Notes: generated by a model not told the origin, from the letters alone. A stretch of 51,911 nt of DNA from an uncultured Candidatus Saccharibacteria bacterium (GCA_964453075.1 CAYVNM010000006.1:1-51911), one strand, 5' to 3'. Shown: positions 8,252 through 51,894, counted from the first letter of the stretch. Translations and numbers: made by a program.

Positions 8252-8366
8252 GTGACGATAAGAAAAATATCCGTGACCAAATTTCTTTTTCTAAATAAGA
8301 AAATTGACAGCATGTTATTTTATAAGTATTATTAATTTTGGAAAAAACCTTTTGTCTGGAGGAGTT

Positions 8367-8849
8367 ATGTCAGAAAACGTTGATAGACTTCGTATGCTGG
8401 AGAATGGGTTCTGGACCAACAAAAAGGGAGAGGTTTTTCCTCTCTCTGATGTGGGCGATATCTGGCTCATGCATCTGCTGAAGAAGCTGGATATCTATCG
8501 TACTGGCAACTCATCAAGAGCAGATCGCATGAACAAAATGTACACACTCATTTTGGCAGAGTGTGACAAGAGGAAGTTGGTTACATCTTCTCCGAGATCA
8601 AACAAGTTGTGCCATTGCGGAAGGGTTGGTCTCTACAACGTCAGAGTGATGCAGAATGGTCACCTGAGGTCCCACTATTTCTGTGCGGAACATCGTCAAG
8701 AGGCCATGACTTTGCAGAAAGTGGTTATGGCTAAGAGAGATGTGGGTAAGACACTGAGGGAGAAGGACAGAAAGGAATTTGACCAGGAAGATGCCTGTCG
8801 TTCTGCTGCCAAAAAAACAACAAAATTCGGAAAAGGAGGGTATCGTTGA
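8367..8849 (+). CDS. hypothetical protein (GC-rich cassette C1)
   Basis: Promoter TTGACA(8304)-17 nt-TATTAT. GGAGG SD 5 nt before ATG 8367. 160 aa with a Cys/His cluster (CHCG..FCAEH). Wobble-containing hairpin 8882-8906 plus TTTTCC after the stop. Visibly GC-richer than its flanks. Confidence 0.6.
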   Translation: MSENVDRLRMLENGFWTNKKGEVFPLSDVGDIWLMHLLKKLDIYRTGNSSRADRMNKMYTLILAECDKRKLVTSSPRSNKLCHCGRVGLYNVRVMQNGHLRSHYFCAEHRQEAMTLQKVVMAKRDVGKTLREKDRKEFDQEDACRSAAKKTTKFGKGGYR

Positions 8850-8974
8850 TTTTTACGACAGCCCTCTAGTTCTTTTGGAAAGAAGGCCTCACGGTGGTTG
8901 TGGGGTCTTTTCCATAAAGGTTGCTTTTTTTTCGCCTTTTGTGTATGCTCTAAGAACTTAAATAAATCAAATTT

Positions 8975-9130
8975 ATGTCACAAGACAGATTAATACAGCT
9001 AAAAAACAAGGAGTCTGGGGAAGTATATTGGACTTCAAAAAACAAGAAAAAAGTTGAGCGAAAAATAGAGCTCAAAAAATATAGTAAAAAACTTCGAAAG
9101 AGGATTACCTTCAAAGAAGCCAAAAAATAA
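8975..9130 (+). CDS. rpmG: 50S ribosomal protein L33
   Basis: 51 aa ORF absent from the track (<60 aa): MSQDRLIQLKNKESGEVYWTSKNKKKVERKIELKKYSKKLRKRITFKEAKK. The L33 pattern Y.T.KNK......KlELkKY.P..rKh..fkE.K is present. Confidence 0.85.
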   Translation: MSQDRLIQLKNKESGEVYWTSKNKKKVERKIELKKYSKKLRKRITFKEAKK

Positions 9131-9156
9131 AAACGCCTACTAGGCGTTTTTATTTT
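9131..9156. terminator. hairpin terminator between rpmG and tRNA-Trp
   Basis: AAACGCCTA-ct-AGGCGTTTTTATTTT. Confidence 0.6.
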
Positions 9157-9160
9157 ATTG

Positions 9161-9231
9161 CGGGGGGTGGAAGAATCGGACTCCCGACAACGGTTTTGGA
9201 GACCGTAGTTATACCACTTAACTAACCCCCC
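9161..9231 (-). tRNA. tRNA-Trp(CCA)
   Basis: Reverse complement reads GGGGGGT TA GTTA AGTGGTA TAAC T ACGGT CTCCAAA ACCGT ..GGGAG TCCGATT CTTCC ACCCCCC G. Confidence 0.9.
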
Positions 9232-9256
9232 TAGATTCATCTATGCTACACAATTT

Positions 9257-10189
9257 TTAACTTTTAAGCAAAAAGTGCTCAACGATTTTTTCAGCTTCAC
9301 TGTAATTTTTGGGTTTTACCCACCTTATTTTTTTATCCCCGCCTGCTCCCGACCGAACGGGAGGGCGGGCAGGTCTCTTGAACCATGTCATTTGTCTTTT
9401 TGCATATCGCCATATCTCAGTTTCTAACTTTTCCAAAAATTCTTTTTTTGTTATTTTGTTTTGTAAATATAGAGCTAAGTATCTGTATTCCAAACCCAGT
9501 GCCAACATTCTTTTCCAAGACAAACCCTTTTTATGTAAATTCTGTCCTTCTTTTATCATTCCTTTTTTGACGCGCGAAATTAACCTATTATGAATTCTTT
9601 CTTTCAATTCTTCGTCAGGAATAGTTAATCCTATTTGTAGGAATTGATAATCATTTTTATTCTTTTTTATTTTTGGTACAGAACCAAGTTTGGTTGCTAT
9701 TTCAATGGCCCGGATGAGTCTAACAGGATTTTTTTTATCTATATTTTTCAAACGTTTTGGATCTAGTTTTATTAAAATGGTTTGAAGTTCAGAAAGGCTT
9801 TTCTTCTCTAGTTTTTTACGTAGTTCTTTGTTTGGAGGAACTTCTGGTAGGACAATGTCATCCACTATTGATTGTATGTAGAATCCAGTACCACCACAGA
9901 TAATTGGTAGTTTGCCACGAGCAATGATTTCTTCAATTATTCTTTTTGTGTGTTTCAACCACTCTGACACAGAGAAAATCTTTTTAGGAGAAACAACATC
10001 CAGCATATGGTGGGCAATACCCATCATTTCTTTTTTTGTGATTTTTCCTGTACCCAAGTCTAAGTCGGTGTATACCTGTCTTGAATCAGCAGAAATAACC
10101 TCGCCATTATATTTTTTAGCAACTTTTACGGCAAAATCAGATTTACCTGTGGCAGTAGGGCCAAGTATCACTAGTATTTTAGGTTTCAT
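9257..10189 (-). CDS. miaA: tRNA dimethylallyltransferase
   Basis: P-loop GPTATGKS, ADSRQVY, HHMLDV, YAKRQMTWF. Start set at MKPKILVILG because the longer ORF (to 10273) runs through tRNA-Leu(CAA). Contains an in-frame GC-rich palindromic insert at 9337-9373. Confidence 0.9.
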   Translation of the reverse strand: MKPKILVILGPTATGKSDFAVKVAKKYNGEVISADSRQVYTDLDLGTGKITKKEMMGIAHHMLDVVSPKKIFSVSEWLKHTKRIIEEIIARGKLPIICGGTGFYIQSIVDDIVLPEVPPNKELRKKLEKKSLSELQTILIKLDPKRLKNIDKKNPVRLIRAIEIATKLGSVPKIKKNKNDYQFLQIGLTIPDEELKERIHNRLISRVKKGMIKEGQNLHKKGLSWKRMLALGLEYRYLALYLQNKITKKEFLEKLETEIWRYAKRQMTWFKRPARPPVRSGAGGDKKIRWVKPKNYSEAEKIVEHFLLKS

Positions 10190-10197
10190 TCTATTTG

Positions 10198-10279
10198 TGC
10201 CGGAGAGAGGACTTGAACCTCCATCCCTTGCGAGACGCGATTTTGAGTCGCGCGCGTATACCAATTCCGCCACTCCGGC
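10198..10279 (-). tRNA. tRNA-Leu(CAA)
   Basis: Reverse complement reads GCCGGAG..CGCGA CTCAAAA TCGCG..long variable arm..GGAGG TTCAAGT CCTCT CTCCGGC A. Confidence 0.92.
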
Positions 10280-10340
10280 ATTAACTTTATTAGTCTATAT
10301 TTATTTTACTAAAAAATCAATTTCGTGATAAAATACGTGT

Positions 10341-12895: not shown

Positions 12896-12987
12896 ATAGC
12901 AGGATTATACCCTAAAACCTATAAAGAAGTTATGGTATTGATTTTTATATATAAGTATGATATAATTGAGTTCAGGAGATGCTTACA

Positions 12988-13218
12988 ATGTCTGGAACTG
13001 AATTCGGTGTGGGTTTCGCTGGAGTCGTTCTCCTGGCCTTGATTTGGGGCCTGAAGGCGGACGGGTATTTTCAGAAATGCAAGAAGTGTGGCAGTCGACT
13101 GACTACTGTGCGTGGTTCGTACCACACTTCACACTGGATTTACGTGAGGTACGTTCACTGTTGGAGTTGTGGTACCAACACCTGGCCGCCTCCGTGGCAT
13201 CTGGTGAACAAAGAGTAA
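12988..13218 (+). CDS. hypothetical small membrane-anchored zinc-ribbon-like protein (GC-rich cassette C2)
   Basis: TTGATT(12938)-17 nt-TATAAT(12961). AGGAG 9 nt before ATG 12988. 76 aa with an N-terminal TM helix and CKKC..17 residues..CWSC. Hairpin CTCAACAC..GTGTTGAG downstream. Confidence 0.55.
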   Translation: MSGTEFGVGFAGVVLLALIWGLKADGYFQKCKKCGSRLTTVRGSYHTSHWIYVRYVHCWSCGTNTWPPPWHLVNKE

Positions 13219-13289
13219 GTGCGTATGGTCTCAACACAGAAAAGTTCTCACATAATGTGGAGCTTTACGTGTTGAGGCCTTTTCTGTAC

Positions 13290-15497
13290 CTAATCTTTTT
13301 TCTTTTTAGCAAAACCTCTTTTCTTTTTTTCTTCGGCTAGTATTTCCAATGCACGTGGAAGTTCGATAGTATAAACATCATCTTCTTTTAGTGAACGAAA
13401 ATCTTTTTGATGAACTATGTATGGTCCAAATCGGCCAATATTTGCTGTTATTTTTTCTCCAGTTGTCGGGTGAACCCCAAGTGTTCTTGGAAGAGTCAGG
13501 TATTTTAGGGCGTCTTGTAGGGTAACAGAAGACAAATCCTTACCTTTTGGTATAGAGGCCATTTTTGGTTTTGGTGCTTTTTTACTTCCTTTACCCTTAA
13601 CTCTTTCACCAATCTGAACATAAGGTCCGTATTTTCCAACCATCATAAAAATAGGTAATCCAGATTCTGGATCAATACCCAAAGGTTCATCTTTTTTTAT
13701 TTCTTCACCATCCATAGTCAAGGCACCTTCACAGTCTGGATATTTTGCACAAGACAGAAACTTGCCACTTCGTGACAATTTTATAATCATAGGACCTCCA
13801 CAAACTGGACATTTGAATGATTTATCTGCATTACCAAGATTTGTAACCTTGTCCAATTTGTCCTTGCTTTTTATCTCAGCTATGAATGGTTTGTAGAAAG
13901 TTTTTAGTGTTTTTACATATTCTTCTTTACCTTCAGCTATAAGATCAAGTCGATCTTCCATGTCGGCTGTAAAGCTGTCACTTATGTATCCAGCAAAGTT
14001 ATCTTCAAGAAAACTAGAGACGACATCTCCGGTATCTGTTGGTATCAGAGCTTTGTTTTGCTTTTCTACGTAACCTCTATCTTCTAGTGTTTTGATCGTT
14101 GAAGCATATGTACTAGGTCTTCCAATTCCTCTTTTTTCTAGTTCTTTTATAAGTCCTGCTTCAGAATATCTTCCCGGTGGTTCTGTTTGTTTTTCTTCCT
14201 TGGAAATATTTTTTAATTCGAGTTTCTCATTTGTTTTTACCTTTGGCAATTCAACATCATCTCCTCTAGATGCAGGATCTCCTAGTAACCAACCGGGAAA
14301 TTTTATTTGTGATCCGGTTACAGAAAAATCTGGAATACCGTCTTTTTCTGAAAGACCTTTCACGTTTGCTGTTATTTTTGTTCGTAAGGTTTTTGCATCT
14401 TTCATTTGAGACGACAAAGCTCTTCTCCAAATGAGTTCATATAATTTTTTTTGTTCGTCATTTATGCCCGCATGCTCTATGTCAAAATGTGTTGGTCGGA
14501 TGGCTTCATGTGCTTCCTGGGCATTTTTGCTTTTTGTTGTAAATTTTCTAATTTGTAAATATTCTTTTCCAAATTTTTTCTCAACAACACTGGCTATCTG
14601 AGCAATGGCCACATTACTTAGGTTTGTAGAATCAGTACGCATATACGTAATATGTCCAGCTTCATACAACTTCTGAGCGATACCCATTGTTCTAGAAGGT
14701 GAGAAACCGAGCCTAGAACTGGCTGTTTGTTGTAAGGTAGAAGTTATAAAAGGAGCTCGTGGACTTTTTTTGACATCTGATTCTTTTACGTCTTTCACAT
14801 ACCACTTGTTTTCCTTACCAGCTTTTTCTGCGGTTTCAATAATGTAGTCTAAAACTTTTTTATCTGTAGGTTCTTCCTCGCAGACAAGAGTTATAGAATT
14901 TTTGTTTTCAGTATTAAAATCAGCTGAAACAACCCAGAATGTGTGACTTTTGAAAGCACGAATCTCTCTCTCACGTTCCATTATTATACGTAGGGCAGGA
15001 GATTGAACTCTACCTGCTGATAGCCCATAACGAACTTTCTTCCATATAAGTCCAGACAAGTCATATCCCACAAGCCTATCCAGAACTCTTCTGGCTTCTT
15101 GAGCTTGCTTCAAATTATCATCTATTTTTCTTGGGTGTTTTATTGCTTCAACCACCGCCTCTTTTGTAATTTCGTGAAAAACTACCCGTTTTGGATGTTT
15201 GAGGCCTGTAGCTTCTGCGATATGCCAAGCAATAGCTTCTCCTTCACGGTCGGGGTCAGTTGCAAGCAAAACTTCCTTTGCTTTTTTTGAAAGAGTTTTA
15301 AGCTCGTTAACAATCTTTTCTTTACCTTTTGATATTTCATAATGTGGAATAAAACCACCTTCTATATCAATGGCTTTTTTATTTGATTTTGGTAAGTCGC
15401 GAATATGACCTACAGAAGCAACCACTGTATATTCTCCATCAAGATATTTTGAAATAGTTTTTGCTTTTGCTGGAGATTCGACAATAAGTAATTTCAT
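13290..15497 (-). CDS. topA: DNA topoisomerase I
   Basis: Toprim start MKLLIVESPAKAKT, DPDREGE, active-site region YMRTDS, C-terminal CxxC zinc ribbons. Start placed at the canonical MKLLIVESP rather than the track's upstream ATG (15578). Confidence 0.95.
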   Translation of the reverse strand: MKLLIVESPAKAKTISKYLDGEYTVVASVGHIRDLPKSNKKAIDIEGGFIPHYEISKGKEKIVNELKTLSKKAKEVLLATDPDREGEAIAWHIAEATGLKHPKRVVFHEITKEAVVEAIKHPRKIDDNLKQAQEARRVLDRLVGYDLSGLIWKKVRYGLSAGRVQSPALRIIMEREREIRAFKSHTFWVVSADFNTENKNSITLVCEEEPTDKKVLDYIIETAEKAGKENKWYVKDVKESDVKKSPRAPFITSTLQQTASSRLGFSPSRTMGIAQKLYEAGHITYMRTDSTNLSNVAIAQIASVVEKKFGKEYLQIRKFTTKSKNAQEAHEAIRPTHFDIEHAGINDEQKKLYELIWRRALSSQMKDAKTLRTKITANVKGLSEKDGIPDFSVTGSQIKFPGWLLGDPASRGDDVELPKVKTNEKLELKNISKEEKQTEPPGRYSEAGLIKELEKRGIGRPSTYASTIKTLEDRGYVEKQNKALIPTDTGDVVSSFLEDNFAGYISDSFTADMEDRLDLIAEGKEEYVKTLKTFYKPFIAEIKSKDKLDKVTNLGNADKSFKCPVCGGPMIIKLSRSGKFLSCAKYPDCEGALTMDGEEIKKDEPLGIDPESGLPIFMMVGKYGPYVQIGERVKGKGSKKAPKPKMASIPKGKDLSSVTLQDALKYLTLPRTLGVHPTTGEKITANIGRFGPYIVHQKDFRSLKEDDVYTIELPRALEILAEEKKKRGFAKKKKD

Positions 15498-15596
15498 ACG
15501 TTTGTCTAGTATTACCGTTTTTTTATTTTTTTGCAAATCTTTGGTGCAATAAATATTTAAGGCGAAGGGGTGTTGCATCTTGCAACACCCCTCAAG

Positions 15597-15821
15597 TCAC
15601 GGAACAGTTGGTGGCCACTTCTTCTGTCCGAGTGGACGGATCTTTTGTCCGAGACAGTAGTCCTCAACTCGTGCTAGCCAGCACGGGATGTCGAAGAATC
15701 CTATCGTGTTTGGCGGCACGAGGGGTCCCCAATGCTTACGGACAACGCCTCCCTTTTTCCCACAGTCACTGCACTCTGTTTCCGGAAACACTCCAACTTC
15801 TGTGTCGGCTGTCGAAGGCAT
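15597..15821 (-). CDS. hypothetical protein (GC-rich cassette C3)
   Basis: GAGGAG SD 7 nt before the ATG. TATAAT upstream, no clear -35. 74 aa. Perfect hairpin GGGGTGTTGCA-aga-TGCAACACCCC (15566-15592) right after the stop. Confidence 0.45.
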   Translation of the reverse strand: MPSTADTEVGVFPETECSDCGKKGGVVRKHWGPLVPPNTIGFFDIPCWLARVEDYCLGQKIRPLGQKKWPPTVP

Positions 15822-15864
15822 AGCCCATCTCCTCTGTGGGGTATTATAGCATGTTTGTAATTTT

Positions 15865-16725
15865 TTATTTTAGGTGTATCTCACCCATGATTTCTTCCAA
15901 AATGCCTTTAATTTCCATTGTAGCTATAATGGTCTGGGTTACATATACTGGTTTGCCCAGTCTGCGAATGATTTCGTCACGAGACAATGGTTCGTTTAAT
16001 ATATTAATAACCTCGTGTTCATCAGATGAACATTCCGAATAGTCTCTTTTTCTAAACAGATCTTCGTGTGGATTTAATCCTAGAGCAGTTATTATGTCGC
16101 TAGATTGTGTTATGGGTGTAGCGCCGAGGCGGAGTAACATATGTGGCCCTTCGGATGTTTGTGAAAAAATTGAATGAGGGACGGTGAACACATCTCTGTT
16201 GTATTCGATTGCGTATTTAGAAGTGATCAATGTTCCTGATTTGAGTGCGGCCTCTATGACCATTGTAGCGTGACACATTCCTGCCATGATTCTGTTTCTT
16301 TGTGGTGGACTCCATGGTGTTGTGACGAAATCATCTGCAAATTCAGAAATTAGAGCTCCACCATTCTCAACTATATCTTTTGCTAAATTTCGGTTACTGG
16401 ACGGGTACAGTACTTTTTGAGAAAGACCAGATGCGGGCACAGCAATAGTTGGTAAACCTGATTTTATTGCAGCTCTATGGGCTATGGCATCCATACCCAA
16501 AGCAAGTCCAGAGACTATTGTTATTGAATATCCTCTTAGTCCTTCGATTAGTTTTTCACAAACTACTTTTCCATAATCACTATATTTTCTAGAACCGACA
16601 ACAGCTAAATATTTTTCTGTTTTAGGTAGTTCTCCAATAATCCTCATGGATTTTGGGGGATCGTTTATTTGTAGGAGTAGGGGAGGAAAATCTTTTTTAT
16701 CCAAATTGCGAATTTCCATGTCCAT
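15865..16725 (-). CDS. dprA: DNA processing protein DprA/Smf
   Basis: Rossmann-like DprA core (VVGSRK.S.YG, SGLALGMDAIAHRAA). Usual dprA-topA neighbourhood. Confidence 0.85.
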   Translation of the reverse strand: MDMEIRNLDKKDFPPLLLQINDPPKSMRIIGELPKTEKYLAVVGSRKYSDYGKVVCEKLIEGLRGYSITIVSGLALGMDAIAHRAAIKSGLPTIAVPASGLSQKVLYPSSNRNLAKDIVENGGALISEFADDFVTTPWSPPQRNRIMAGMCHATMVIEAALKSGTLITSKYAIEYNRDVFTVPHSIFSQTSEGPHMLLRLGATPITQSSDIITALGLNPHEDLFRKRDYSECSSDEHEVINILNEPLSRDEIIRRLGKPVYVTQTIIATMEIKGILEEIMGEIHLK

Positions 16726-20207: not shown

Positions 20208-20259
20208 AATTTAGCTAAAATTACTTGACTTATTTTGTGGTAGTGGTATGATAATGAAA

Positions 20260-20640
20260 GATGACTCGACCCGCGCAAGGTTGCCCGGGCGACAACAGAC
20301 AGGCAGACGAGCCGAAAAAGGAGGTTGTGACCTACTACCCAATACGTGTTGAGGATGACAGAGGAAACTCTGCTCGAATCACACAAACCAGTTGGGCTGG
20401 TGAAATTACTAATCCTGTCTGAGTCGGGGCGGTCCCCGACAGGTGCCAGCTACCTTGAAAGGCTGGGCATATTAAAAAAAGAGAGCAAGGCGGTAAGACC
20501 TGCAAAGGTTTGAGGCGGCGGTCCGGGGGACCCACTCAAGACTTGTGGGTATACCGAAGCTCGAGGTGTGCGGAGGCGGGTCAGTGAGCCCGATGAGAAC
20601 GCACACAACAGGGGCAGAGTCAAAAAACTCTGCCCCTTTT
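20260..20640 (+). ncRNA. rnpB: probable RNase P RNA
   Basis: Blocks resembling bacterial RNase P RNA: ACAGGUGCCAGCUACCUUGAAAGGCUGGG (cf. GGGUGCCAGGUAACGCCUGGG), AGAGAGCAAGGCGGUAAGACC, CAGUGAGCCCGAUGAGAACGCACACAACAGG (cf. CAGUGAGC..GAUGAAUGAC..CACGACAGAA). Promoter TTGACT(20225). Ends in GGGGCAGAGT-caaaaaa-ACTCTGCCCC-TTTT. The ends are approximate. Confidence 0.7.
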
Positions 20641-21736: not shown

Positions 21737-21882
21737 AATTCCCAAAACCCGTCAACCTGGCAGGTTGACGGGTAGGGGTGGGTTTTCAACAGATTAGCAC
21801 TTGACACAAGTGCTTTTTTAGTATAATATATATAGCAGATTGTCAAGTCCGTTTCGGAGTCGGCTTACCCAGGGAGGTTCCC

Positions 21883-22053
21883 GTGCGCGCAACTCTACTG
21901 GCTTTGGCCACGGTGGTGCCAATTCGGCAGGCGCTTCTCTCGTGGTTTGGCAAAGATCTAGGTCTTTGGGCACTCGTGCTCTTCGGTGTCGTGGCGCTGT
22001 TCGTCAGCTATCGCATCAACCGGCGGAGGAACCCTCCTTCGTCAGCACTCTGA
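21883..22053 (+). CDS. hypothetical 56-aa hydrophobic protein (GC-rich cassette C4; GTG start)
   Basis: Not in the track. TTGACA(21801) with a TATAAT-like box. GGGAGG 5 nt before GTG 21883. Product MRATLLALATVVPIRQALLSWFGKDLGLWALVLFGVVALFVSYRINRRRNPPSSAL. Terminator CGCCGTTCGGT-ctagc-ACCGGACGGCG-TTTTCGTTTTT (22075-22112). Confidence 0.45.
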   Translation: MRATLLALATVVPIRQALLSWFGKDLGLWALVLFGVVALFVSYRINRRRNPPSSAL

Positions 22054-22168
22054 CCCAGGGTCAGTCGTCTCCAGCGCCGTTCGGTCTAGCACCGGACGGC
22101 GTTTTCGTTTTTATCTGGGGTGGTAAAAAATAAAAAAAAGTGTAATATGTAGAATGTTTACTAAACAT

Positions 22169-22215
22169 TGGGAGATCGTCTAGGATTAGAGGCCTTGAGC
22201 CTTTAGAGGGGTGAG
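22169..22215 (+). pseudogene. degraded 5' fragment of tRNA-Gln
   Basis: TGGGAGATCGTCTA is identical to the first 14 nt of tRNA-Gln at 22505. The rest aligns with deletions in the D loop and anticodon loop (GAGGC CTTGA GCCTT). There is no T arm or 3' acceptor strand. Confidence 0.55.
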
Positions 22216-22504
22216 CTCGGGATGGGACCCGAGCGCAAGACCTTCTTCAGATATTTTATGAGCACAGCGAAATAAAATATCGAAAAGGTGTACTGCTCCT
22301 GTAAGGAGAGATAGGTATGGAGCGCAAGACCGGAGTCTGTCGAGATGAGGTGAGAAGTGATATTATCACTTCGCAAGACCTTGAACATTTTGTTATCAAA
22401 ATGTGAAAGGTGTACAGTTCTTGTAAAGAAGGGTCGCGAAAATTTTCTCCAGAAAATTATTTGTGACCGATTCCCGTTCATTAAAATTTGTTTGTTTCTA
22501 AAGC
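22216..22504 (+). repeat. structured repeat region between pseudo-tRNA-Gln and tRNA-Gln
   Basis: Three (G/T)CGCAAGACC boxes (22233, 22322, 22371). Two GAAAGGTGTAC boxes, each followed by a GTAA-loop hairpin (CTCCTgtaAGGAG / TTCTTgtaAAGAA). Several AT-rich hairpins. Confidence 0.4.
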
Positions 22505-22575
22505 TGGGAGATCGTCTAACGGTAGGACAGAGGCCTTTGAAGCCTTTAATTGGGGTTCGATTCCCTGTCTCCCAG
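22505..22575 (+). tRNA. tRNA-Gln(UUG)
   Basis: TGGGAGA TC GTCT AACGGTAG GACA GAGGC CTTTGAA GCCTT TAAT TGGGG TTCGATT CCCTG TCTCCCA G. Confidence 0.9.
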
Positions 22576-22650
22576 CTTTGGGCGGAAACAAATTTTAAAT
22601 CTAATTTCTTCCCATCCAGTTTGGGATAGTTTCGGATTTCTAGTAGGATT

Positions 22651-35927: not shown

Positions 35928-35986
35928 TTTTTATATAAAAAAGATCGGGATGGATCTTCTCAGATCCACCCCGGATGAGTGTCGTG

Positions 35987-36106: not shown

Positions 36107-36248
36107 AAGAACACTCCCTGTGCACCTGCCCAACCATCATGATTGGTGCAGTCCTTTGCTAGTAAAACATATTTCAAATTATTTTGTCAAAGGTTGTATG
36201 TGAAAACTGGCAGGACCTGTGTAGAGGACCTGCCAGTTCGTGTCCGCT

Positions 36249-36383
36249 TTATTCGGACGGGTTGCTTGGTGGAGTCTTCTTCTTGAGAAAGGCGAAGGCC
36301 CCCATGATGAGCACACACAGAAAGATCAGGGCGAGAGCACCACCCAGTGCTCCCATGTCGTGGTTCGTGGTTGCAATAAACAT
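36249..36383 (-). CDS. hypothetical 44-aa single-TM peptide (GC-rich cassette C12)
   Basis: Not in the track. Minus-strand TTGACA-17 nt-TATTTT. Product MFIATTNHDMGALGGALALIFLCVLIMGAFAFLKKKTPPSNPSE. Terminator CTGGCAGGTCCT-ctacac-AGGTCCTGCCAG-TTTTC. Confidence 0.4.
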   Translation of the reverse strand: MFIATTNHDMGALGGALALIFLCVLIMGAFAFLKKKTPPSNPSE

Positions 36384-36510
36384 TTTTAGTCACAGGATTT
36401 GGGCTACATTGCTCTCAACCTGTGCCTCCAAAAATAAAATATCACCGTTTTTGATGTTTGTCAAAAATGTTTTTTTAAAAAACATGATACAATGAAAAGT
36501 ATCTAATTTT

Positions 36511-38586: not shown

Positions 38587-39339
38587 TTAATTTTCTATTT
38601 CTATACCTGAAGAGTTTAAATCCTTGTGGGTGAATTTGACTGTCTCTCTGACGGGAGTTTTTCTTATTATTTCAATAATTTCATCTTCATTGTCTGATAT
38701 TTTATAAAGAGTTAAATCATTTTTATCTACGGTGCCCAGCTTAAACAGAGTATTCTTTATGAGATCATCAATCCGGTTCCAGAAATCACTGCCGACTAGA
38801 ATTATCGGCATTTTTATGATTTTACCAGTTTGAATGAGTGTGATAATTTCAAAAAATTCATCTAACGTTCCGTAACCTCCCGGGAAGAAAATGTAGGCTT
38901 CTGCTGAGAAAGAAAGGCAAACTTTTCTACTGAAAAAGTAATAAAAATCTAAATTGTGAGTGAGATATGCATTTTGAACTTGGTGATTCGGTAATTCTAT
39001 AGTGAGTCCGATTGATTCACCTCCAGCTTCAAAAGCCCCGCGGTTTGCTCCTTCCATTACACCCGGACCTCCTCCTGTTACTACACAGTAGTGTAATTCA
39101 TTTACTATTTTTTTTGCTAAACTCCTGGCTTTCTGGTAATAGATGTTCGATTCTTCAAAATGGGTTCCTCCAAAAAAAGTTACTGATCTGGGATAATCTT
39201 GGAGAAAGTTGAAACCGTCTGTGAACTCTTTTGATATCAAATGTACTCTTTCTCTGGTATCCTCTGCCATTTCTCTCTTGGACATTGGAATAGATGGTAG
39301 TTCTCTTGGTGGCAAATTTAATATTGGTTTGTCTTTCAT
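38587..39339 (-). CDS. LOG-family (TIGR00730) nucleotide phosphoribohydrolase-like protein
   Basis: VTGGGPGVMEGANRGA and FPGGYGTLDEFFE motifs. Start at ATG 39339, straddling the end of the 109-nt repeat. Confidence 0.8.
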   Translation of the reverse strand: MKDKPILNLPPRELPSIPMSKREMAEDTRERVHLISKEFTDGFNFLQDYPRSVTFFGGTHFEESNIYYQKARSLAKKIVNELHYCVVTGGGPGVMEGANRGAFEAGGESIGLTIELPNHQVQNAYLTHNLDFYYFFSRKVCLSFSAEAYIFFPGGYGTLDEFFEIITLIQTGKIIKMPIILVGSDFWNRIDDLIKNTLFKLGTVDKNDLTLYKISDNEDEIIEIIRKTPVRETVKFTHKDLNSSGIEIEN

Positions 39340-39446
39340 CCCGTTAGAGATAGGTCTCACCATAGTTCATACGATGATTCCTATCGAAATTAATTTATAA
39401 TGTCAGATTTACTTATTATTGATTTCCCGTGAATCTCTAACGGGAT
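39338..39446 (-). repeat. 109-nt element with 14-bp terminal inverted repeats, copy 2 (5' leader of the LOG-family gene)
   Basis: Same termini (ATCCCGTTAGAGAT / ATCTCTAACGGGAT) and same length as 30916-31024. It differs mainly in an 18-nt central segment. Confidence 0.6.
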
Positions 39447-40750: not shown

Positions 40751-42004
<1,254 letters not shown>

Positions 42005-42044
42005 AGCCCTTGACTTATTTTGTGGTCGGGTGTATAATTAATTG

Positions 42045-42316
42045 TAGAGGTGGTGGCGCTCCTGAGAGATCGAGAAAGTCGACGAGACGAGAAGCAAAAC
42101 CGCAAAACCGCAAAACCGCAAAACCGCAAAACCGCAAAACCGCAAAACCGAAAAAGTAAAAGCTGACGAGAAGCAACTCTCGGGTACGATGCGCTGCCAC
42201 CTCAGTTCCTTGATTCTGATCCCCCGAGTCACTCGGTCTAGGGGGCCTGCCGCAAGGTGGGTTACTACCGGGTTCATCTGGGCGGGGTTCGTAGCTGCAG
42301 CTACACCCCGCCTTTT
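42045..42316 (+). ncRNA. unclassified ncRNA with 7 tandem CAAAACCG units
   Basis: Promoter TTGACT(42010)-17 nt-TATAAT(42033). Helix GAGGTGGTGGCGC(42047)/GCGCTGCCACCTC(42191) and helix CCTGAGAG/CTCTCGGG, both with G-U pairs possible only on the + strand. 7 x CAAAACCG lie at 42095-42150 in the enclosed loop. A second domain ends in the terminator GGCGGGGTtcGTAGCTGCAGCTACACCCCGCC-TTTT. Confidence 0.6.
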
Positions 42317-42348
42317 CTATTATATATAATTTATTGTATAGTGTTGGG

Positions 42349-44394: not shown

Positions 44395-44442
44395 AAAATT
44401 AGCGTGGGTCGCAACGACCCACGCCAGCGCTCGAGGCTCTCT

Positions 44443-44697
44443 CTAGACGAACCTCTTCTCCAGATCTTCCCAGTGAAATGCACGGATGCTACCGTCTTCG
44501 TTTGTGATGGGGACACCTTTCTTTTCCAAGGTGACCATGTAGGAGACCTTACCATTTCCTCCTGGCTTTCTTACTCTGCAAACATGGAAGATCCCGAAAC
44601 AGTAGCCGAACTTCCTTACGAGCCCCTTGAATTTCGGATCCTTTTTCTTGGCCAGTCTGACCTGCATTCCAACTACCGGATGGATTCGGTTCGACAT
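44443..44697 (-). CDS. hypothetical protein (GC-rich cassette C13)
   Basis: Minus-strand TTGACA with a TAGTGT-like -10. 84 aa basic protein. Terminator GCGTGGGTCG-ttg-CGACCCACGC-TAATTTTTT (44402-44426). Confidence 0.55.
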   Translation of the reverse strand: MSNRIHPVVGMQVRLAKKKDPKFKGLVRKFGYCFGIFHVCRVRKPGGNGKVSYMVTLEKKGVPITNEDGSIRAFHWEDLEKRFV

Positions 44698-44839
44698 TTT
44701 TGGCCTTTCTGGGATGCGATCCCGGAAGTTTTTTCTGATAAAACACTAACATTACTAGGTTTGATGTCAAATTTGTTTATTTGTGGTATTATGTCTGTCT
44801 ACCCCTATACCTATACGAAGAAACGGGGTCTCTTTATGT

Positions 44840-47637: not shown

Positions 47638-47711
47638 TTAAAGAGAATTAATTTTTAAAATGGAAATGGGCGCCGAGGGTTAGTCGGCGCCCGGGGTGGG
47701 TGTACTGTTGA

Positions 47712-47993
47712 TCAGCGCACTGCGCTGATCTTGAGGAAGCACTGAGCCTCTTCGAGGAGACTCCAAACGGACGAAGCTTGGGCCGTGTAGTCGTGCCTGA
47801 TGGGTGACCTGACTACCATAAGCTCGCTCATGAGTATGAGAGCGGCAGCCCAACCTGGCTGAAGTTGGAATCGTGCCACACTCTCCTTGTCAGTATCGTT
47901 GACGCCATTCTCGATGAAGACCTCGTTCTTCTTGAGGCCATCGCTGAGCCTCTTTGTCAGGATGGCCAACTGCTTCCTGTCGGTCTGGTTCAT
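47712..47993 (-). CDS. hypothetical protein (GC-rich cassette C14)
   Basis: GGAGGA SD 5 nt before the ATG. TATAAA -10 upstream. 93 aa. Terminator GGGCGCCGA-ctaaccc-TCGGCGCCC (47660-47690). Confidence 0.55.
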   Translation of the reverse strand: MNQTDRKQLAILTKRLSDGLKKNEVFIENGVNDTDKESVARFQLQPGWAAALILMSELMVVRSPIRHDYTAQASSVWSLLEEAQCFLKISAVR

Positions 47994-48087
47994 ACAGTTC
48001 CTCCGATGGATTTTATATCACAATAAAAATAATAAAACAAGTATTTGTTTTGTAAATAGTAAAGAGCGCCGATGTTACTTGGCGCTC

Positions 48088-48321
48088 TCAGTGAACCGTT
48101 TGGGATCCTACTGTGTCATCCATCGCGTTCCAATAGAAGACAATATTGTGGAATGTAGCACCACGTTCCTTTAGGTGTAACAACAGTAGAGCCGTTACCA
48201 CGTCGTCCGTTATGCTCCTGGATCTTACTCCATGGATGGGTATGGTTTCCGGATAGTTCTCCGGCGTCTCGATCTCTTCTCCTTCAAGGGTTTCGTACCA
48301 CAGCTTGACATGGATGGTCAT
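48088..48321 (-). CDS. hypothetical protein (GC-rich cassette C15)
   Basis: AGGAGG 6 nt before ATG 48321 (the track uses a TTG two codons upstream). 77 aa acidic protein. Terminator AGAGCGCC..GGCGCTCT (48062-48090). Confidence 0.5.
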   Translation of the reverse strand: MTIHVKLWYETLEGEEIETPENYPETIPIHGVRSRSITDDVVTALLLLHLKERGATFHNIVFYWNAMDDTVGSQTVH

Positions 48322-48367
48322 GTACAACCTCCTTGATTAATATTAGCATGTAAAGTATTAATAGCAT

Positions 48368-49609
48368 ATGTTGGAAAAAGACTTAAGACAAAAAATATCT
48401 AAATTCCCAGACACACCTGGGGTGTACTTTTTCCTTGATAAGAATGGCAAAGTTTTGTACATAGGTAAGGCTACTTCTCTACGAGATAGAGTTAGGAGTT
48501 ATTTTAACCAAGATATAGTAAACACCAGGAGTCCGTTGGTTTTGAAAATGCTAAATGGTTTTATTGATATAAAATATACAGAAACTAGTTCTGTATTGGA
48601 GGCTCTTGTGCTAGAGGCTCATCTCATAAAAAAATATCAGCCAGAAGCAAACATAAAAGAAAAAGATAATAAGAGTTTTAACTTTGTAATTATCACTAAT
48701 GAAGATTTTCCTCGTGTTTTAGTGGTGAGACAGAGAGAGTTGGAAAAAATGGGTTACGATGTGTCTTATACATTTGGACCATTTCCGAACGGTAGTCAGT
48801 TGCGCGAGGCCATGAAGATAATTCGTAAGATGTTCCCGTTTCGTGATAAGTGCGAACCATACAATCCAAGGACTCCCCTTGGAAAGAATAAAGCGTGTTT
48901 TAATAGACAAATAGGACTTTGTCCGGGAGTTTGTTCAGGTGAAATATCCAAAGAGGATTATGCAAAGCAAATCAAAAATATTATCCTGTTTTTTGAAGGC
49001 AACAAAAAAAGACTAATAAAAAATCTAGAAAAGGAAATGAAGGTTCTTGCTGAGAAAAAAGATTTTGAAAAGGCAAACCTTACAAAACATACATTGTTTG
49101 CATTAAACCATATTCAAGATATTTCTCTAATAAAAAACGATGTGTGGAAAAACAGAGAAGGTGTCACAGAAGTTTTTCGTATTGAATCATACGATATTGC
49201 TCACATGTCGGGAAAAAATGTAGTTGGTGTTATGACTGTGATTGAAGATGGAGAGATAAAAAAATCAGAGTACAGAAAATTTAAAATAAAAGAAGATCCG
49301 GGTGCTAATGATACTAAGGCTTTGAAGGAAGTTTTATCTAGACGGTTAGCTCATATAGAATGGAGAGAACCCAATCTGATTGTGGTGGATGGTGGGGTGG
49401 CGCAAAAGAGAGTCATGGAGAAGATCTTACAGGAAAATACTGTGCAAATACCAGTGGTATCAGTAGTAAAAGATGATAGGCATAAACCAAAAGAAATTCT
49501 AGGAGATAAGAAGTGGCTCAAATATGAAAGAGAAATATTGTTATCAAACAGTGAGGCTCATAGGTATGCAATAAATTTTCACAAACATCTTCGCGAAAAA
49601 ATTTTGTAA
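48368..49609 (+). CDS. uvrC: excinuclease ABC subunit C (short, apparently without the C-terminal HhH region)
   Basis: GIY-YIG (PGVYFFLDKNGKVLYIGKA), UVR-like segment, endonuclease domain (ESYDIAHMSG). 413 aa. Confidence 0.9.
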   Translation: MLEKDLRQKISKFPDTPGVYFFLDKNGKVLYIGKATSLRDRVRSYFNQDIVNTRSPLVLKMLNGFIDIKYTETSSVLEALVLEAHLIKKYQPEANIKEKDNKSFNFVIITNEDFPRVLVVRQRELEKMGYDVSYTFGPFPNGSQLREAMKIIRKMFPFRDKCEPYNPRTPLGKNKACFNRQIGLCPGVCSGEISKEDYAKQIKNIILFFEGNKKRLIKNLEKEMKVLAEKKDFEKANLTKHTLFALNHIQDISLIKNDVWKNREGVTEVFRIESYDIAHMSGKNVVGVMTVIEDGEIKKSEYRKFKIKEDPGANDTKALKEVLSRRLAHIEWREPNLIVVDGGVAQKRVMEKILQENTVQIPVVSVVKDDRHKPKEILGDKKWLKYEREILLSNSEAHRYAINFHKHLREKIL

Positions 49610-49626: not shown

Positions 49627-50574
49627 ATGAAAACTTTACCGTCTTCTATCCACATAGGAGTTCTTCGTGGAGGACCGTCTCCTGAATATGATTTATCTCT
49701 AAAAACTGGTGCAAATGTTTTGAGGCACCTGTCTCAAACCCACAAACCAATTGATATTTTTGTTTCAAAAGAAGGTAAGTGGCACATGAACGGCTTAGAG
49801 AGATCACCTGAGAGGATACTAAAAAATGTAGATGTGGTTTTTAATTCTATACATGGTGCTTATGGCGAAGATGGGAAAGTTCAAGAAATATTGAGTCACA
49901 ATGGTATTCCTTTTGTTGGTTCTGATAGATATGCTTCTGCTATATCAATGAACAGATGGATTTCTAAGCAAAAAGCAACGCAAGCAGGAATAAAAACACC
50001 AGTATCTATACTGGTAAGAAGATCTGATCAACTAATACCAAAGGCAAAGCAAATTTTTGAATCTATACCTTGTCCTTTGATGGTTAAGCCTGCAGTGGGA
50101 GGTTTTAATGTAGGTTCATATAAAGTTGAGTCTTTTAATGACTTGATCTCAGCTCTTGAAAATGTGCTGTATCTTTGTGAAGCAGCTATAGTAGAAGAAT
50201 ATATGGTTGGTAAGTTTGCTTCCTGTGATGTCATTGATAATTTTAGACAGAAAGATAATTATGTTTTACCACCTGTTGAAATTATCTCATCCGATAATAT
50301 TGTTTCTCCTGGAAATTTTAGTCCATCAGAAAAAAAAGAGATAGAGAAAGTTGCTTTATTAATACATAACAAATTAGGTTTGAAACATTATTCCAACTCT
50401 AATTTTGTCGTATCTCCAAAGAGGGGCGTTTATTTGTTAGAAGTTAATACTACACCCAGGATTGAGGAGAAGTCTTCCCTCGTAGAATCTCTTCATTCTG
50501 TTGGGGTGGAGGTTAAAGACTTTTTGCATCACTTGTTGCATATGGCCTTGTACAAGACAGGTCTGTGGATTTAG
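49627..50574 (+). CDS. ddl: D-alanine--D-alanine ligase
   Basis: GGPS.E...SL.TG, HGAYGEDGKVQ..L...GIPFVGS, ATP-grasp core. Confidence 0.85.
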   Translation: MKTLPSSIHIGVLRGGPSPEYDLSLKTGANVLRHLSQTHKPIDIFVSKEGKWHMNGLERSPERILKNVDVVFNSIHGAYGEDGKVQEILSHNGIPFVGSDRYASAISMNRWISKQKATQAGIKTPVSILVRRSDQLIPKAKQIFESIPCPLMVKPAVGGFNVGSYKVESFNDLISALENVLYLCEAAIVEEYMVGKFASCDVIDNFRQKDNYVLPPVEIISSDNIVSPGNFSPSEKKEIEKVALLIHNKLGLKHYSNSNFVVSPKRGVYLLEVNTTPRIEEKSSLVESLHSVGVEVKDFLHHLLHMALYKTGLWI

Positions 50575-50620
50575 TAAACGAAAAAGCCCACCGGGATTAA
50601 TTTGAGCTTCTCCGTGTGGA

Positions 50621-50869
50621 CTAGTGTTGTTTTGCTCGCCGATGAGCGAGCACTTCGTGAGTGTAGCCACATTCTTGGGTAACATCTCCTAATAGGCCAT
50701 CTACTGGCCCGCGAAGGTTTGACGGATCACCGCAAATGTCAGAAACATCTCCAGTGATGCCGGAGACATCTCCTTCGATACCTGCGAAGTTTCCCCAGAC
50801 TCCATCGTGAAGTCCAGAGATGGTGTTCTCAACGTTGTGCTGTGGTCTTTTCTGGTGGATAGGGCGCAT
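50621..50869 (-). CDS. hypothetical protein with six G-initiated heptad repeats (GC-rich cassette C16)
   Basis: 82 aa. GNFAGIE GDVSGIT GDVSDIC GDPSNLR GPVDGLL GDVTQEC. TATAAT -10 upstream, GGAAAGGAAA SD region, imperfect hairpin plus TTTTTCGTTT downstream. Confidence 0.5.
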   Translation of the reverse strand: MRPIHQKRPQHNVENTISGLHDGVWGNFAGIEGDVSGITGDVSDICGDPSNLRGPVDGLLGDVTQECGYTHEVLAHRRAKQH

Positions 50870-50940
50870 GCATTTTCCTTTCCAGATTTTTGTTCTATAA
50901 AAATTATATCACGAAATAAAATAATAAAGTAAAAAAATAA

Positions 50941-51003
50941 ATGAGAAAACCCCGCGACACTTGCGAAGCGCAGGGCTTCTCATGTGCGGGGCTGGGGGGT
51001 GGT
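50941..51003 (-). terminator. shared ~55-nt terminator module, copy 1 (after C17)
   Basis: Minus strand reads CCCCGCACA..GAAGCcctgcGCTTC..TGTCGCGGGG-TTTTCTCAT. Near-identical to 51400-51457. Confidence 0.55.
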
Positions 51004-51004
51004 A

Positions 51005-51331
51005 CTACCAGAAGAGGATCTTGTGTGCGCAGATGATTTTGCGCAATCTTTTCCTGTAAGTCTTCTTCTCGGCCGAGGTGAGTGGAACGACCCTGAGAAG
51101 GAGTGTGTTTCTGCCAGGTGCCTTTCTGGGTTTTGACACAACCCATCCAGGCACAACCGCGTAGCTTCCGGTGTGGTTGTTGTAGGCTTGGAAGAAGATG
51201 ATGGAACCCTTTCTCACCTTCAACTCTCTCGGCGGGTCAAAGATCTGGCCATCTGTACCCGGAATCTCCAGGTATAGGCTATTCAAGTATGACTTCGGGT
51301 CATACTCGTAGATCTGAAATTTCTTGCTCAT
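51005..51331 (-). CDS. hypothetical protein (GC-rich cassette C17)
   Basis: Minus-strand TTGACT-17 nt-TACTGT. GAGGAGAA SD. 108 aa with a basic C-terminus. Confidence 0.55.
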   Translation of the reverse strand: MSKKFQIYEYDPKSYLNSLYLEIPGTDGQIFDPPRELKVRKGSIIFFQAYNNHTGSYAVVPGWVVSKPRKAPGRNTLLLRVVPLTSAEKKTYRKRLRKIICAHKILFW

Positions 51332-51399
51332 CGGTGTATGGTTCTCCTCTCGCAGTACAGTACAATTAAATCAATATTTAGTCAAAGATATTTAGGGAT

Positions 51400-51457
51400 A
51401 TGAGAAAACCCCGCGACACTTGAAGCGCGGGGCTTCCTTGTGTGCGGGGTGGGGGCG
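51400..51457 (-). terminator. shared ~55-nt terminator module, copy 2 (after C18)
   Basis: ATGAGAAAACCCCGCGACACTT..GAAGCGC.GGGCTTC..TGTGCGGGG aligns with 50941-51003 with only a few differences. Confidence 0.55.
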
Positions 51458-51460
51458 GAG

Positions 51461-51748
51461 TTAGATCCCGCCGACGTCGATGAGACTCTCATCGAACGGC
51501 GGAAGGTCGATCTCCTCGCCGGTAGTCTCGCGGACTGCACCAGCAAAAGCGGTGTAGTGGAGGAACAGAAGTCCTTCCACGATTTCACGCGCCATCGCCT
51601 TCTGTTCGTCCGTGGGAGGGAGTGGTGGGGTAGAGAATGTTCTTCCCGTCAACATGAAGATGATGGTGGGGGAGCTTCTCTCGTCGTAGTAGAGAGTGCT
51701 CCAGACCGCCTCTTCCAGTTCCGGCGAAACGACAGGTTCGCTTGCCAT
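51461..51748 (-). CDS. hypothetical protein (GC-rich cassette C18)
   Basis: Minus-strand TTGACT(51814-51809)-17 nt-TATAAT(51791-51786). AAGGAGG 9 nt before ATG 51748. 95 aa acidic protein. The track's longer ORF (to 51871) would start inside the promoter. Confidence 0.55.
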   Translation of the reverse strand: MASEPVVSPELEEAVWSTLYYDERSSPTIIFMLTGRTFSTPPLPPTDEQKAMAREIVEGLLFLHYTAFAGAVRETTGEEIDLPPFDESLIDVGGI

Positions 51749-51894
51749 GTTTCGTGCCCTCCTTAGGCACAGCAATCTATTTACAATTATAGCACTAATT
51801 GAGTTTATAGTCAATACTATTTTGCAATATCTGAGAGTAACTACTGATTTATGTACTTGTGAGATTAACAAAAGTTTGATAATCTAGTTTAGTT

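Follow-up and report, generated by a model that had tools for sequence, protein, structure and literature searches.

GC-rich units among AT-rich core genes

The window analysed here is a 51,911-nt stretch of bacterial chromosome (CAYVNM010000006.1:1-51911, assembly GCA_964453075.1, recorded as an uncultured Candidatus Saccharibacteria bacterium) in which short GC-rich blocks, most of them built around a single open reading frame (ORF) and referred to below as cassettes, are scattered between AT-rich core genes. The GC content of the whole window is 37.9%, and a 300-nt profile displayed sharp peaks of 0.47-0.56 above a floor of 0.29-0.40. The blocks are found on both strands at a spacing of roughly 2.5 kb, with rel, topA, dprA, Dus, dnaX, uvrB, uvrA, uvrC and ddl as neighbours, and the flanking genes rel, topA, dprA, dnaX, uvrABC and ddl bear out the proposal of an earlier note on this DNA, made by inspection of the sequence, that such blocks fill intergenic gaps between conserved genes. 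Since an independent Logan contig was 100% identical to the window over 8.4 kb, the mosaic is not an assembly artefact. The genome is present at 100% identity in samples SRR12487046 and SRR12487035.

Protein relatives of the encoded XseA were found at 44 loci, with 55-88% identity and titles mostly naming Patescibacteria, Parcubacteria, Zambryskibacteria or Paceibacterota, and it is on these relatives that the chromosome is placed in the Zambryskibacteria (Paceibacteria, candidate phyla radiation (CPR)). Comparisons with relatives drew on a set of 45 related loci with 948 ORFs, in which the closest species, the sister species, is represented by L005 and L064 (XseA 85% identical); a scan of metagenome contigs with the AI-2E transporter protein returned only five, fairly distant loci. 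GC-rich islands were present in nearly all related loci, and across the 948 ORFs the GC content at third codon positions (GC3), taken relative to the local core, formed a main peak with a long right tail consisting mostly of ORFs shorter than 100 amino acids (aa).

The 17 ORFs singled out earlier as GC-rich all translate cleanly and have a GC content of 0.46-0.59 and a GC3 of 0.46-0.72, compared to 0.30-0.41 and 0.19-0.36 for 33 core ORFs, which places them above these core ORFs in both measures. A further ORF that had been called borderline, 26528-27028 (-), has a GC3 of 0.39 and belongs to the native class, not to the cassettes. Third positions carry 0.32 C and 0.29 G in the cassettes versus 0.11 and 0.16 in the core; Ile is encoded by ATC in 72% of cases versus 11% and by ATA in 6% versus 50%, Leu by CTC in 38% versus 6%, and Lys by AAG in 70% versus 22%. 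Codon choice in the cassettes is inverted, more than shifted. The GC content of first and second codon positions (GC1 and GC2) is raised too, with more Arg, Cys and Trp and less Ile, Asn and Lys. The jump in GC content spans the ORF, the terminator and the short spacer that separates the two (0.53), the 5' untranslated regions (UTRs) are mildly enriched (0.39) and the promoters are AT-rich, much as had been described from the appearance of the blocks. As a separate observation, TGA ends none of the 31-33 core ORFs of the window versus 6 of the 17 cassettes; recoding of TGA was considered and dropped because core ORFs of the clade as a whole end in TGA in 12% of cases, and its use in the cassettes is probably the result of chance plus GC pressure.

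Promoter-like sites were in total no more numerous in the window than in shuffled sequences. The top-scoring sites (at least 10/12) number 25, and 11 of these are found upstream of a GC-rich block, no more than 140 nt away and on the correct strand, compared to 0.8 expected (p = 1e-9); the six promoters quoted in the earlier note were all found in place. Sites resembling terminators are about twice as frequent as in shuffled sequences, and nearly all hairpins of at least 11 pairs are positioned directly 3' of blocks (20610, 22073, 25520, 26192, 29768, 32461, 34822, 35973 and 44426), in agreement with the private hairpin and T-run said to follow each stop codon; the hairpin at 47692 has 9 pairs, 8 of which are G-C. 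Shine-Dalgarno (SD) sequences, GGAG(G), precede about 12-13 of the 17 starts by 4-12 nt, so that the earlier claim of an SD 4-9 nt upstream nearly everywhere holds for most units and fails for 36249, which has no adjacent SD. GC-rich blocks are thus almost the only places where top-ranking sigma-70-like promoter matches and the strongest intrinsic terminators occur. Most units are predicted to have their own promoter and terminator around one gene, and the proposal that the blocks are complete transcription units is well supported at the level of predicted signals.

On the plus strand, the cassette at 8304-8935 comprises the promoter TTGACA-17-TATTAT (8304-8332), an SD, an ORF (8367-8849; GC 0.46, GC3 0.52, ORF length P = 0.002) for a 160-aa product with a net charge of +14 and 5 Cys, and a downstream hairpin with T-run. 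The rel/topA gap holds the cassette 12938-13300 (+), with its promoter at 12938-12966, an ORF (12988-13218; GC3 0.58, ORF length P = 0.08) encoding 76 aa with a transmembrane (TM) segment and a CxxC...CxxC motif, and a long hairpin terminator. In the topA/dprA gap, the block 15540-15870 (-) has an extended -10 (TGCTATAAT), an SD, an ORF of 74 aa (15597-15821; GC 0.55) and a hairpin; GC1, GC2 and GC3 are 0.60, 0.51 and 0.53, and hence no codon-position periodicity is seen, the ORF length is not exceptional (P = 0.12), and the block is not shared with L064. It may be coding or an RNA. The dnaX/tRNA-Gln gap contains the cassette 21801-22110 (+; promoter 21801-21829, ORF 21883-22053, terminator 22073-22103), which would encode a hydrophobic product of 56 aa (GC3 0.63) and is matched in L064 by a slot with unrelated GC-rich sequence.

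Two plus-strand cassettes follow in close succession. The first, 24870-25560, with the promoter TTGACA-17-TATTAA and a terminator at 25520-25548, encodes a 190-aa protein (24921-25493) resembling ClpP and phage head-maturation proteases (Pfam Clp_protease, E = 9e-21; phrog_94, E = 3e-24), for which a family of 41 members was collected. The second, 25597-26235 (promoter 25597-25624, terminator 26192-26223 with 13 pairs), encodes 163 aa (25694-26185; GC3 0.62), is absent at the matching site in the sister species, and its product gave no Pfam, PHROG or phage match. On the minus strand, the cassette 29739-30110 adjoins an Lnb_N gene and consists of an 86-aa ORF (29786-30046; GC3 0.69), with homologues in L053 (53%) and L058 (47%), and a terminator at 29768-29739. 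The cassette 32429-33246 (-) has the promoter TTGACA-17-TATACT at 33246-33218 (11/12), one of the six quoted before, a conserved 5'UTR, an ORF (32482-33156) for a 224-aa product with an N-terminal TM helix and a helical domain, and a terminator at 32461-32429. Upstream of the AI-2E transporter gene, the cassette 34422-34865 (+; promoter 34422-34450, terminator 34822-34857 with 16 pairs) encodes a 105-aa product with a net charge of +13 (34487-34804); its RNA folding z score, calculated as for the other cassettes folded on 240-nt segments of the ORF only, is -3.9.

Beyond AI-2E, two small minus-strand cassettes have ORFs for putative TM peptides: 35946-36206, with a 39-aa ORF (35987-36106; ORF length P = 0.58), a terminator at 35973-35946 and a promoter-like site at 36206-36178, and 36205-36464, with a promoter at 36464-36436 and a 44-aa ORF (36249-36383) that is 64% identical to its L005 counterpart at the amino-acid level, the differences being distributed 9/8/21 over codon positions 1/2/3. 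The AI-2E/VTT gap is 571-583 nt long with a GC content of 0.45-0.47 in four species. The remaining cassettes are likewise on the minus strand. The uvrB/uvrA gap holds 44400-44775 (ORF 44443-44697, terminator 44426-44400), encoding 84 aa with a net charge of +11 and 44% amino-acid identity to L005. The cassette 47668-48056, 3' of uvrA (promoter 48056-48029, ORF 47712-47993, terminator 47692-47668), encodes 93 aa with a GC3 of 0.72 and is not shared with L005, and 48060-48400, before uvrC, has an AAGGAGG SD, an ORF for an acidic product of 77 aa (48088-48321; GC3 0.56, ORF length P = 0.04) and a hairpin directly after the stop codon.

Three tandem units are located after ddl: 50560-50948 (ORF 50621-50869, 82 aa, GC 0.51, GC1 0.66, GC3 0.46, folding z = -2.1), 50949-51400 (ORF 51005-51331, 108 aa, net charge +13, GC3 0.68, folding z = -3.3, terminator 50969-50949) and 51401-51814 (promoter 51814-51786, TTGACT-17-TATAAT with TG; ORF 51461-51748, 95 aa, net charge -12, GC3 0.68, folding z = -3.3). 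The terminators after 51005 and 51461 (50949-50969 and about 51395-51440) are nearly identical, GAAGCCCYGCGCTTC..AAGTGTCGCGGGGTTTTCTCAT, which hints at a local duplication of a terminator module. The products of these two neighbours have opposite net charges, +13 and -12, and oppositely charged products are encoded by some adjacent cassette pairs.

With regard to orientation, 11 of the 17 cassettes are on the minus strand and 26 of 34 core genes on the plus strand (Fisher p = 0.006; window positions 8000-51911), and the GC skew of the plus strand is positive throughout this region. It may be, then, that the cassettes preferentially run head-on to replication.

For those families that have orthologues, the ORFs are coding. 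Compared to L005, 32482, 34487, 36249 and 44443 showed mostly third-position differences and a ratio of nonsynonymous to synonymous substitution rates (dN/dS) of 0.07-0.23 (32482, 0.23 at dS 1.13; 34487, 0.07; 44443, 0.22 at dS 2.5), core genes giving 0.02-0.10, and all gaps in the cassette orthologue alignments were multiples of three. The length of the ORF is significant for ORFs of at least 150 aa and by itself not significant for 35987, 36249, 21883, 15597 and 12988 (P 0.08-0.58). The proposal that each block is one ORF stands for the families with orthologues and does not extend to two further blocks, described below, which have no convincing ORF. The cassette proteins evolve several times faster than core proteins and have few relatives: nine for 32482 and five for 34487 among 5.8e9 proteins, while an exhaustive HMMER search of 1.84e9 representative proteins gave six for 8367. 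All members of these three families for which contigs were fetched are on CPR-like contigs with the same synteny. By these substitution patterns and searches, 32482, 34487, 36249, 44443 and 8367 are orphan genes restricted to close relatives; the remaining cassette products were compared with Pfam and PHROGs only.

Among the cassette products of the window, Pfam, PHROGs and PADLOC recognised only 24921, which was also the single product assigned in the earlier note, and the same three resources assigned almost no family to 44 high-GC3 proteins of relatives. Six products have a TM or signal-like segment by simple measures, consistent with the several such products announced before, and four are very basic (+11 to +14). 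Confident AlphaFold2 models were obtained for 32482 (mean predicted local distance difference test (pLDDT) 79; a TM helix and a helical domain) and 34487 (pLDDT 75; an alpha-beta4-alpha fold), and Foldseek found no match to either in the PDB below E = 0.1. Judged by sequence and predicted features, the ORF products are genus-restricted orphans. Small peptides of the membrane or for secretion stand beside strongly basic small proteins, Cys-rich proteins of a zinc-ribbon-like type and a single protein resembling ClpP and phage proteases. Recognisable families also belong to the GC-rich class of relatives, namely MsrB/SelR, a B12-binding radical-SAM enzyme, a cytidylate-kinase-like protein and a SWEET-like transporter (L062 9523-20111; L015, L019, L027, L038), and a GC-rich family of about 400-500 aa with an N-terminal hydrophobic signal-like segment is common to four genomes.

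The two blocks without a convincing ORF are built like cassettes and were missing from the earlier list. The block 20225-20640 (+), directly upstream of dnaX, has a promoter at 20225-20252 and a terminator at 20610-20637, and its RNA (20258-20640, about 380 nt) is 91% identical to L064, with the variation confined to one hairpin, and folds with a z of -4.9. Conservation, folding and the lack of a convincing ORF make it a probable structured non-coding RNA (ncRNA). Firmicutes keep the signal recognition particle RNA at the position just upstream of dnaX, and the RNA could be a divergent housekeeping RNA. The block 42010-42320 (+), between the gene 40772-42004 and uvrB, with a terminator at about 42281-42313, contains eight tandem copies of (CAAAACCG) at 42094-42157, recovered as family D1 in the repeat search. 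Its RNA (42045-42313), for which an ncRNA assignment is plausible, is a probable small RNA (sRNA), and the eightfold CAAAACCG repeat suggests a protein- or RNA-binding sponge. The promoters of the two blocks are almost identical (CTTGACTTATTTTGTGGT...TAT(G)ATAAT). Rfam, at the gathering threshold and also at E <= 1, recovered tRNAs only in the window and no family for either block, which rules out the known structural RNA families of that collection as their identity. The cassettes with orthologues do not share these ncRNA traits, given their protein-type substitutions and the lack of covariation in 32482.

Turnover of the slots and inheritance in place

When the same junctions were examined across related loci, some were found empty and others filled with unrelated GC-rich ORFs, and the presence/absence differences envisaged in the earlier note were thereby borne out. 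The uvrB/uvrA gap is AT-rich and only 128-171 nt long in L008, L009 and L027, measures 276-941 nt elsewhere, and is GC-rich in twenty genomes, where its ORFs belong to several families unrelated by BLAST. Similarly, the gap between 40772 and uvrB ranges from 21 to 1236 nt across relatives, the empty state being 21-46 nt. Only 21 of 129 high-GC3 ORFs of 50-250 aa (16%) had a homologue in another locus, compared to 280 of 416 size-matched ordinary ORFs (67%). The cassettes of the window were, by tblastn, common only to the closest species L005/L064, with identities of 62% (32482), 96% (34487), 64% (36249), 44% (44443) and 94% (24921), next to 87% for the native-class ORF 26528; the other slots of L005/L064 are occupied by different genes or by GC-rich ORFs unrelated to those of the window. 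Roughly one in two cassettes of the window has a counterpart in the sister species. On the time scale of the family, the gaps are reusable slots with content that is gained, lost and replaced in a moron-like manner.

At the level of the genus, inheritance is vertical, with the cassettes kept in place and under purifying selection. Four species have the 34487 cassette immediately upstream of the AI-2E transporter gene, and four lineages have the 32482 cassette beside an HD-domain gene. When the window was compared with L005 (31820-47460), synonymous divergence (dS) of the core proved to be a mosaic of 0.1-2.7, with values of 0.1-0.4 for the HD gene, 40772-42004, uvrA and AI-2E and 0.9-2.7 for the remaining core, pointing to frequent recent homologous exchange between species in tracts that end at cassettes. 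The cassettes have a dS of 1.1-2.5 (34487: 0.29), compared to a baseline of 1.3-2.7 for unrecombined core, and core genes of high similarity lie right beside cassettes that have diverged far more. Being at baseline beside such similar core genes, the cassettes are old residents and not hot spots of recent exchange.

An observation on the 32482 cassette concerns its non-coding parts: the 5'UTR (33157-33218) and the 3' terminator (32429-32481) are almost invariant in four species (window, L053, L005, L057), and the coding region between them is 57-70% identical. The invariant leader suggests a regulatory constraint.

A mobile or recombination-driven cassette system, as raised in the earlier note, was not borne out. 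The search for direct repeats in the blocks revealed no shared flanking repeats and no att- or attC-like motif, no integrase or recombinase was noticed among the scanned ORFs, which take in part of the core set, and the hairpins are T-run terminators.

Maintenance of the GC-rich composition

The GC-richness of the cassettes persists over long divergence. The GC3 of the 32482 family is 0.63-0.74 in five lineages, and that of the 34487 family 0.61-0.68 in four species in which the adjacent AI-2E gene has a GC3 of 0.23-0.26 and saturated third positions; the third positions of 34487 are more conserved than those of this neighbour. In a 32482 trio with polarised third positions, changes from AT to GC and from GC to AT were equally frequent (39 each), compared to about 75% GC-to-AT changes predicted from core per-site rates (p = 2e-6). 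A simple decay calculation with core-like rates would, for a dS of about 1.1, require an ancestral GC3 above 1. Moreover, cassettes shared with the sister species have the same GC3 as those unique to the window. The ClpP-like family has a GC3 of 0.23 in L061, where it is part of an operon-like array in an island-free genome, and of 0.56-0.62 in the window, L062 and L064, where it is a stand-alone unit; as a proxy for the GC state, the GARP/FYMINK composition of the 41 ClpP-like proteins proved unusable because of noise. Stable GC3 across dS of at least 1, together with balanced substitutions, means that in the families examined the signal is not the fading signature of a donor. GC-richness and inverted codon choice are a maintained steady state in two families, and two more are consistent with it. 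Literature searches, limited in reach, did not find such a steady-state compositional dichotomy described for CPR bacteria.

Taken as a whole, we consider it fairly probable that the cassettes constitute an accessory layer of about 17 units and at least two ncRNAs, transmitted vertically within the genus, held at a GC-rich steady state and subject to selection on their transcripts. The layer comprises about 17 monocistronic units. In each of them a strong sigma-70-type promoter and an intrinsic terminator are predicted, and an SD is usually present; at least two ncRNA genes are built alike. The force would be selection on the whole transcript, in that GC-rich coding and 3' regions with excess folding would give rise to stable or differently regulated mRNAs, set apart from the bulk of AU-rich mRNA. 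Such transcript-level selection is our best guess for what maintains the composition, and the cassette proteins probably act in rapidly changing interactions with hosts, competitors or phages. Several findings argue in this direction: the mean folding z was -1.64 for cassettes versus -0.24 for core genes (p = 0.002-0.008), with values of -2 or lower in 6 of 15 cassettes, the predicted expression signals of the cassettes are the strongest in the window, the non-coding 3' spacer is GC-rich as well, and 34487 is more conserved at third positions than AI-2E.

A number of points weigh against this reading. The 32482 gene has its GC3 at equilibrium yet folds weakly (z = -0.45), and RNAalifold applied to four transcripts of its family returned a covariation term of about 0, so that conserved RNA structure is not a general cause. 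The promoters and terminators to which the transcript argument appeals are consensus matches, several of the shortest ORFs are putatively coding, and the steady-state argument is built on the two families with enough sequences. The direction of substitution was, in addition, obtained by parsimony on fairly diverged third positions, and a control on core genes showed that parsimony biases the counts toward common-to-rare changes; this bias would make a cassette look more decaying, not less. Lastly, a few high-GC3 genes of relatives resemble those of mobile elements (MerR/excisionase-like and, as a candidate by eye, one ParB-like), from which it follows that some import occurs.

Recent acquisition from GC-richer donors, be they phages, plasmids, other CPR bacteria or the host, which would make the cassettes true morons or islets with a donor GC content not yet ameliorated, is the strongest of the alternatives that we nevertheless regard as unlikely. 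It would account for the orphan character, the patchy distribution and the presence/absence differences at conserved junctions, for the resemblance of 24921 to a phage head-maturation protease, for the MerR/excisionase-like and candidate ParB-like ORFs among the high-GC3 genes of relatives, and for the GC-enriched MsrB and radical-SAM genes of L062. As much as 13% of genome length in Patescibacteria has also been ascribed to horizontal gene transfer (HGT) (PMC12455944). Against this, orthologues hold a GC3 of 0.6-0.7 across dS of at least 1 with balanced substitutions, cassettes shared with the sister species are as GC-rich as unique ones, and no donor homologues were found in the 5.8e9 and 1.84e9 proteins or in phage collections: scans of IMG/VR with 24921 and 25694 and tblastn against INPHARED with 8367, 25694 and 51005 yielded nothing, the matches of 24921 in phage collections being distant only (at most 36% identity). 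In a survey of gut species, orphan GC content followed genome GC content almost one-to-one, and phage-derived orphans were normally AT-richer than the host genome (PMC11293555). The earlier suggestion of import from a GC-rich host or phage was not supported, given that the three families searched deeply have only 5-9 relatives, all on CPR-like contigs where contigs were fetched, and that within the genus the cassettes are fixed in place and hold their GC3 at 0.6-0.7 with balanced substitutions.

It appears improbable that a local GC-biased DNA process, namely biased gene conversion at hot spots of recombination or a repair bias linked to the units, raises the equilibrium GC content without selection on product or RNA. 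Such a process would fit the shift of all three codon positions and of the 3' spacer, with both G and C increased, as well as a lineage that recombines (core dS mosaic of 0.1-2.7) and has dprA, as expected for competence. The exchange tracts, however, cover the core and stop at the cassettes, which are cold for detectable exchange, and the flanks, although necessarily inside any homologous tract, remain AT-rich; on these grounds biased gene conversion is disfavoured. The effect needed, about +0.35 GC3 over 0.2-0.7 kb, is moreover far above what has been reported for GC-biased gene conversion in bacteria.

Little probability is likewise given to the idea that the blocks are primarily structured RNA genes, with the same cause for their GC-richness as tRNAs in AT-rich genomes, their ORFs being by-products, young de novo genes or parts of dual-function RNAs. 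High-GC intergenic regions have reportedly been used to screen AT-rich genomes for ncRNAs, the two blocks that are built in the identical way offer no good ORF and include a conserved, strongly folding RNA, and 6 of 15 cassette ORFs have a z of -2 or lower; stop-poor GC-rich sequence gives ORFs of 40-60 codons by chance, and 15597 shows no codon periodicity. Every family with orthologues nevertheless displays protein-type substitutions with low dN/dS and indels in multiples of three, ORFs of 105-224 aa yield confident fold predictions, the 32482 mRNA is devoid of covariation, and most starts are preceded by an SD at the correct spacing. Finally, translational selection of the usual kind is unlikely because G-ending codons rise too, GC1 and GC2 rise and non-coding sequence is affected, and the AT-richness of intergenic DNA makes a neutral GC-rich equilibrium unlikely too.

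A wider arrangement, which we put forward tentatively and hold to be rather doubtful, would be two stable "dialects" of nucleotide and codon use in one small CPR chromosome, an AT-rich one for the core and a GC-rich one for autonomous orphan genes and sRNAs, with the composition itself being functional. If so, the dialect could mark a regulon, either of mRNAs escaping a bulk AU-directed decay or of genes with translation gated by the supply of tRNAs reading G/C-ending codons, which might be switched on during host attachment, phage attack or dormancy.

Relation to known systems

The cassettes are best labelled a taxonomically restricted orphan-gene layer at intergenic hot spots, stably GC-rich and with inverted codon choice, accompanied by two unclassified ncRNAs. 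Their likeness to phage "morons", a name said to come from Hendrix and colleagues working on lambdoid prophages, extends to three of four defining features: a single extra gene between genes that are adjacent in relatives, its own (here predicted) promoter and terminator, and a deviant composition. Unlike morons, the cassettes sit among cellular housekeeping genes (rel, topA, dprA, dnaX, uvrABC, ddl), no phage structural or integration genes being seen around the blocks, they have no phage homologues except for one distant protease, and they are GC-richer than the genome with a composition at equilibrium and not an arbitrary donor signature. The analogy thus fails on location and on the meaning of composition, and from the moron architecture proposed in the earlier note, the autonomous single-gene units in variable gaps are retained, while the phage-borne and recently foreign character is not.

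With orphan genes (ORFans) and hot spots of the flexible genome, the cassettes have in common that they are short, fast-evolving, narrowly distributed, under weak purifying selection and found at recurrent intergenic positions. They differ in a GC3 that is stably about 0.35 above the genome, unlike surveyed orphans, which track genome GC (PMC11293555). Genomic islets are matched in atypical composition and patchy distribution, and not in donor lineage, mobility genes or amelioration, no homologues beyond close CPR relatives having been found in the three deep searches, and no flanking repeats. Integron cassettes are similar as single-ORF modules ending in an imperfect palindrome, with content varying between genomes, but the units described here have their own promoters, their palindromes are T-run terminators without a shared core site, and they are scattered in both orientations instead of forming an array at attI beside intI. 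GC-rich structured RNA genes of AT-rich genomes produce similarly sharp GC peaks with a promoter and a terminator, and two blocks are probably of this kind, but most blocks encode proteins under purifying selection. Type I toxin-antitoxin and small membrane-peptide genes, finally, resemble 21883, 35987 and 36249, with their predicted hydrophobic peptides of 39-56 aa in intergenic units that are stand-alone, structured and monocistronic, and would cover only three or four blocks.

Atypical composition is commonly read as a time-stamp of foreign origin, and in the cassettes it amounts to about 35 GC3 points above the genome and is lasting. Since this offset persists next to synonymous sites that have reached saturation, resident genes of CPR bacteria would be mislabelled if HGT were called from composition. 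A force other than mutation bias must be at work on particular genes, in a very small genome where selection is presumably weak, and the cassettes offer a testable case for the debate on whether selection or biased conversion favours GC in bacteria. CPR bacteria are thought to be host-attached, and the cassettes provide a compact and recognisable list of fast-evolving candidate effectors, consisting of secreted or membrane peptides and small basic proteins, plus two RNAs.

Two further features of the window were noted. The long "ORFs" 22203-22715 (-) and 144-332 (-) overlap tRNA-Gln and tRNA-Leu on the opposite or the same strand and are almost certainly spurious, as tRNA sequence is GC-rich and stop-poor. 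A 119-nt direct repeat, 85% identical between its copies at 30906-31024 and 39328-39446, covers the 5' end, together with upstream sequence, of an Lnb_N-like and of a LOG-like gene, both on the minus strand, and the independent contig L001 breaks exactly at these repeats.

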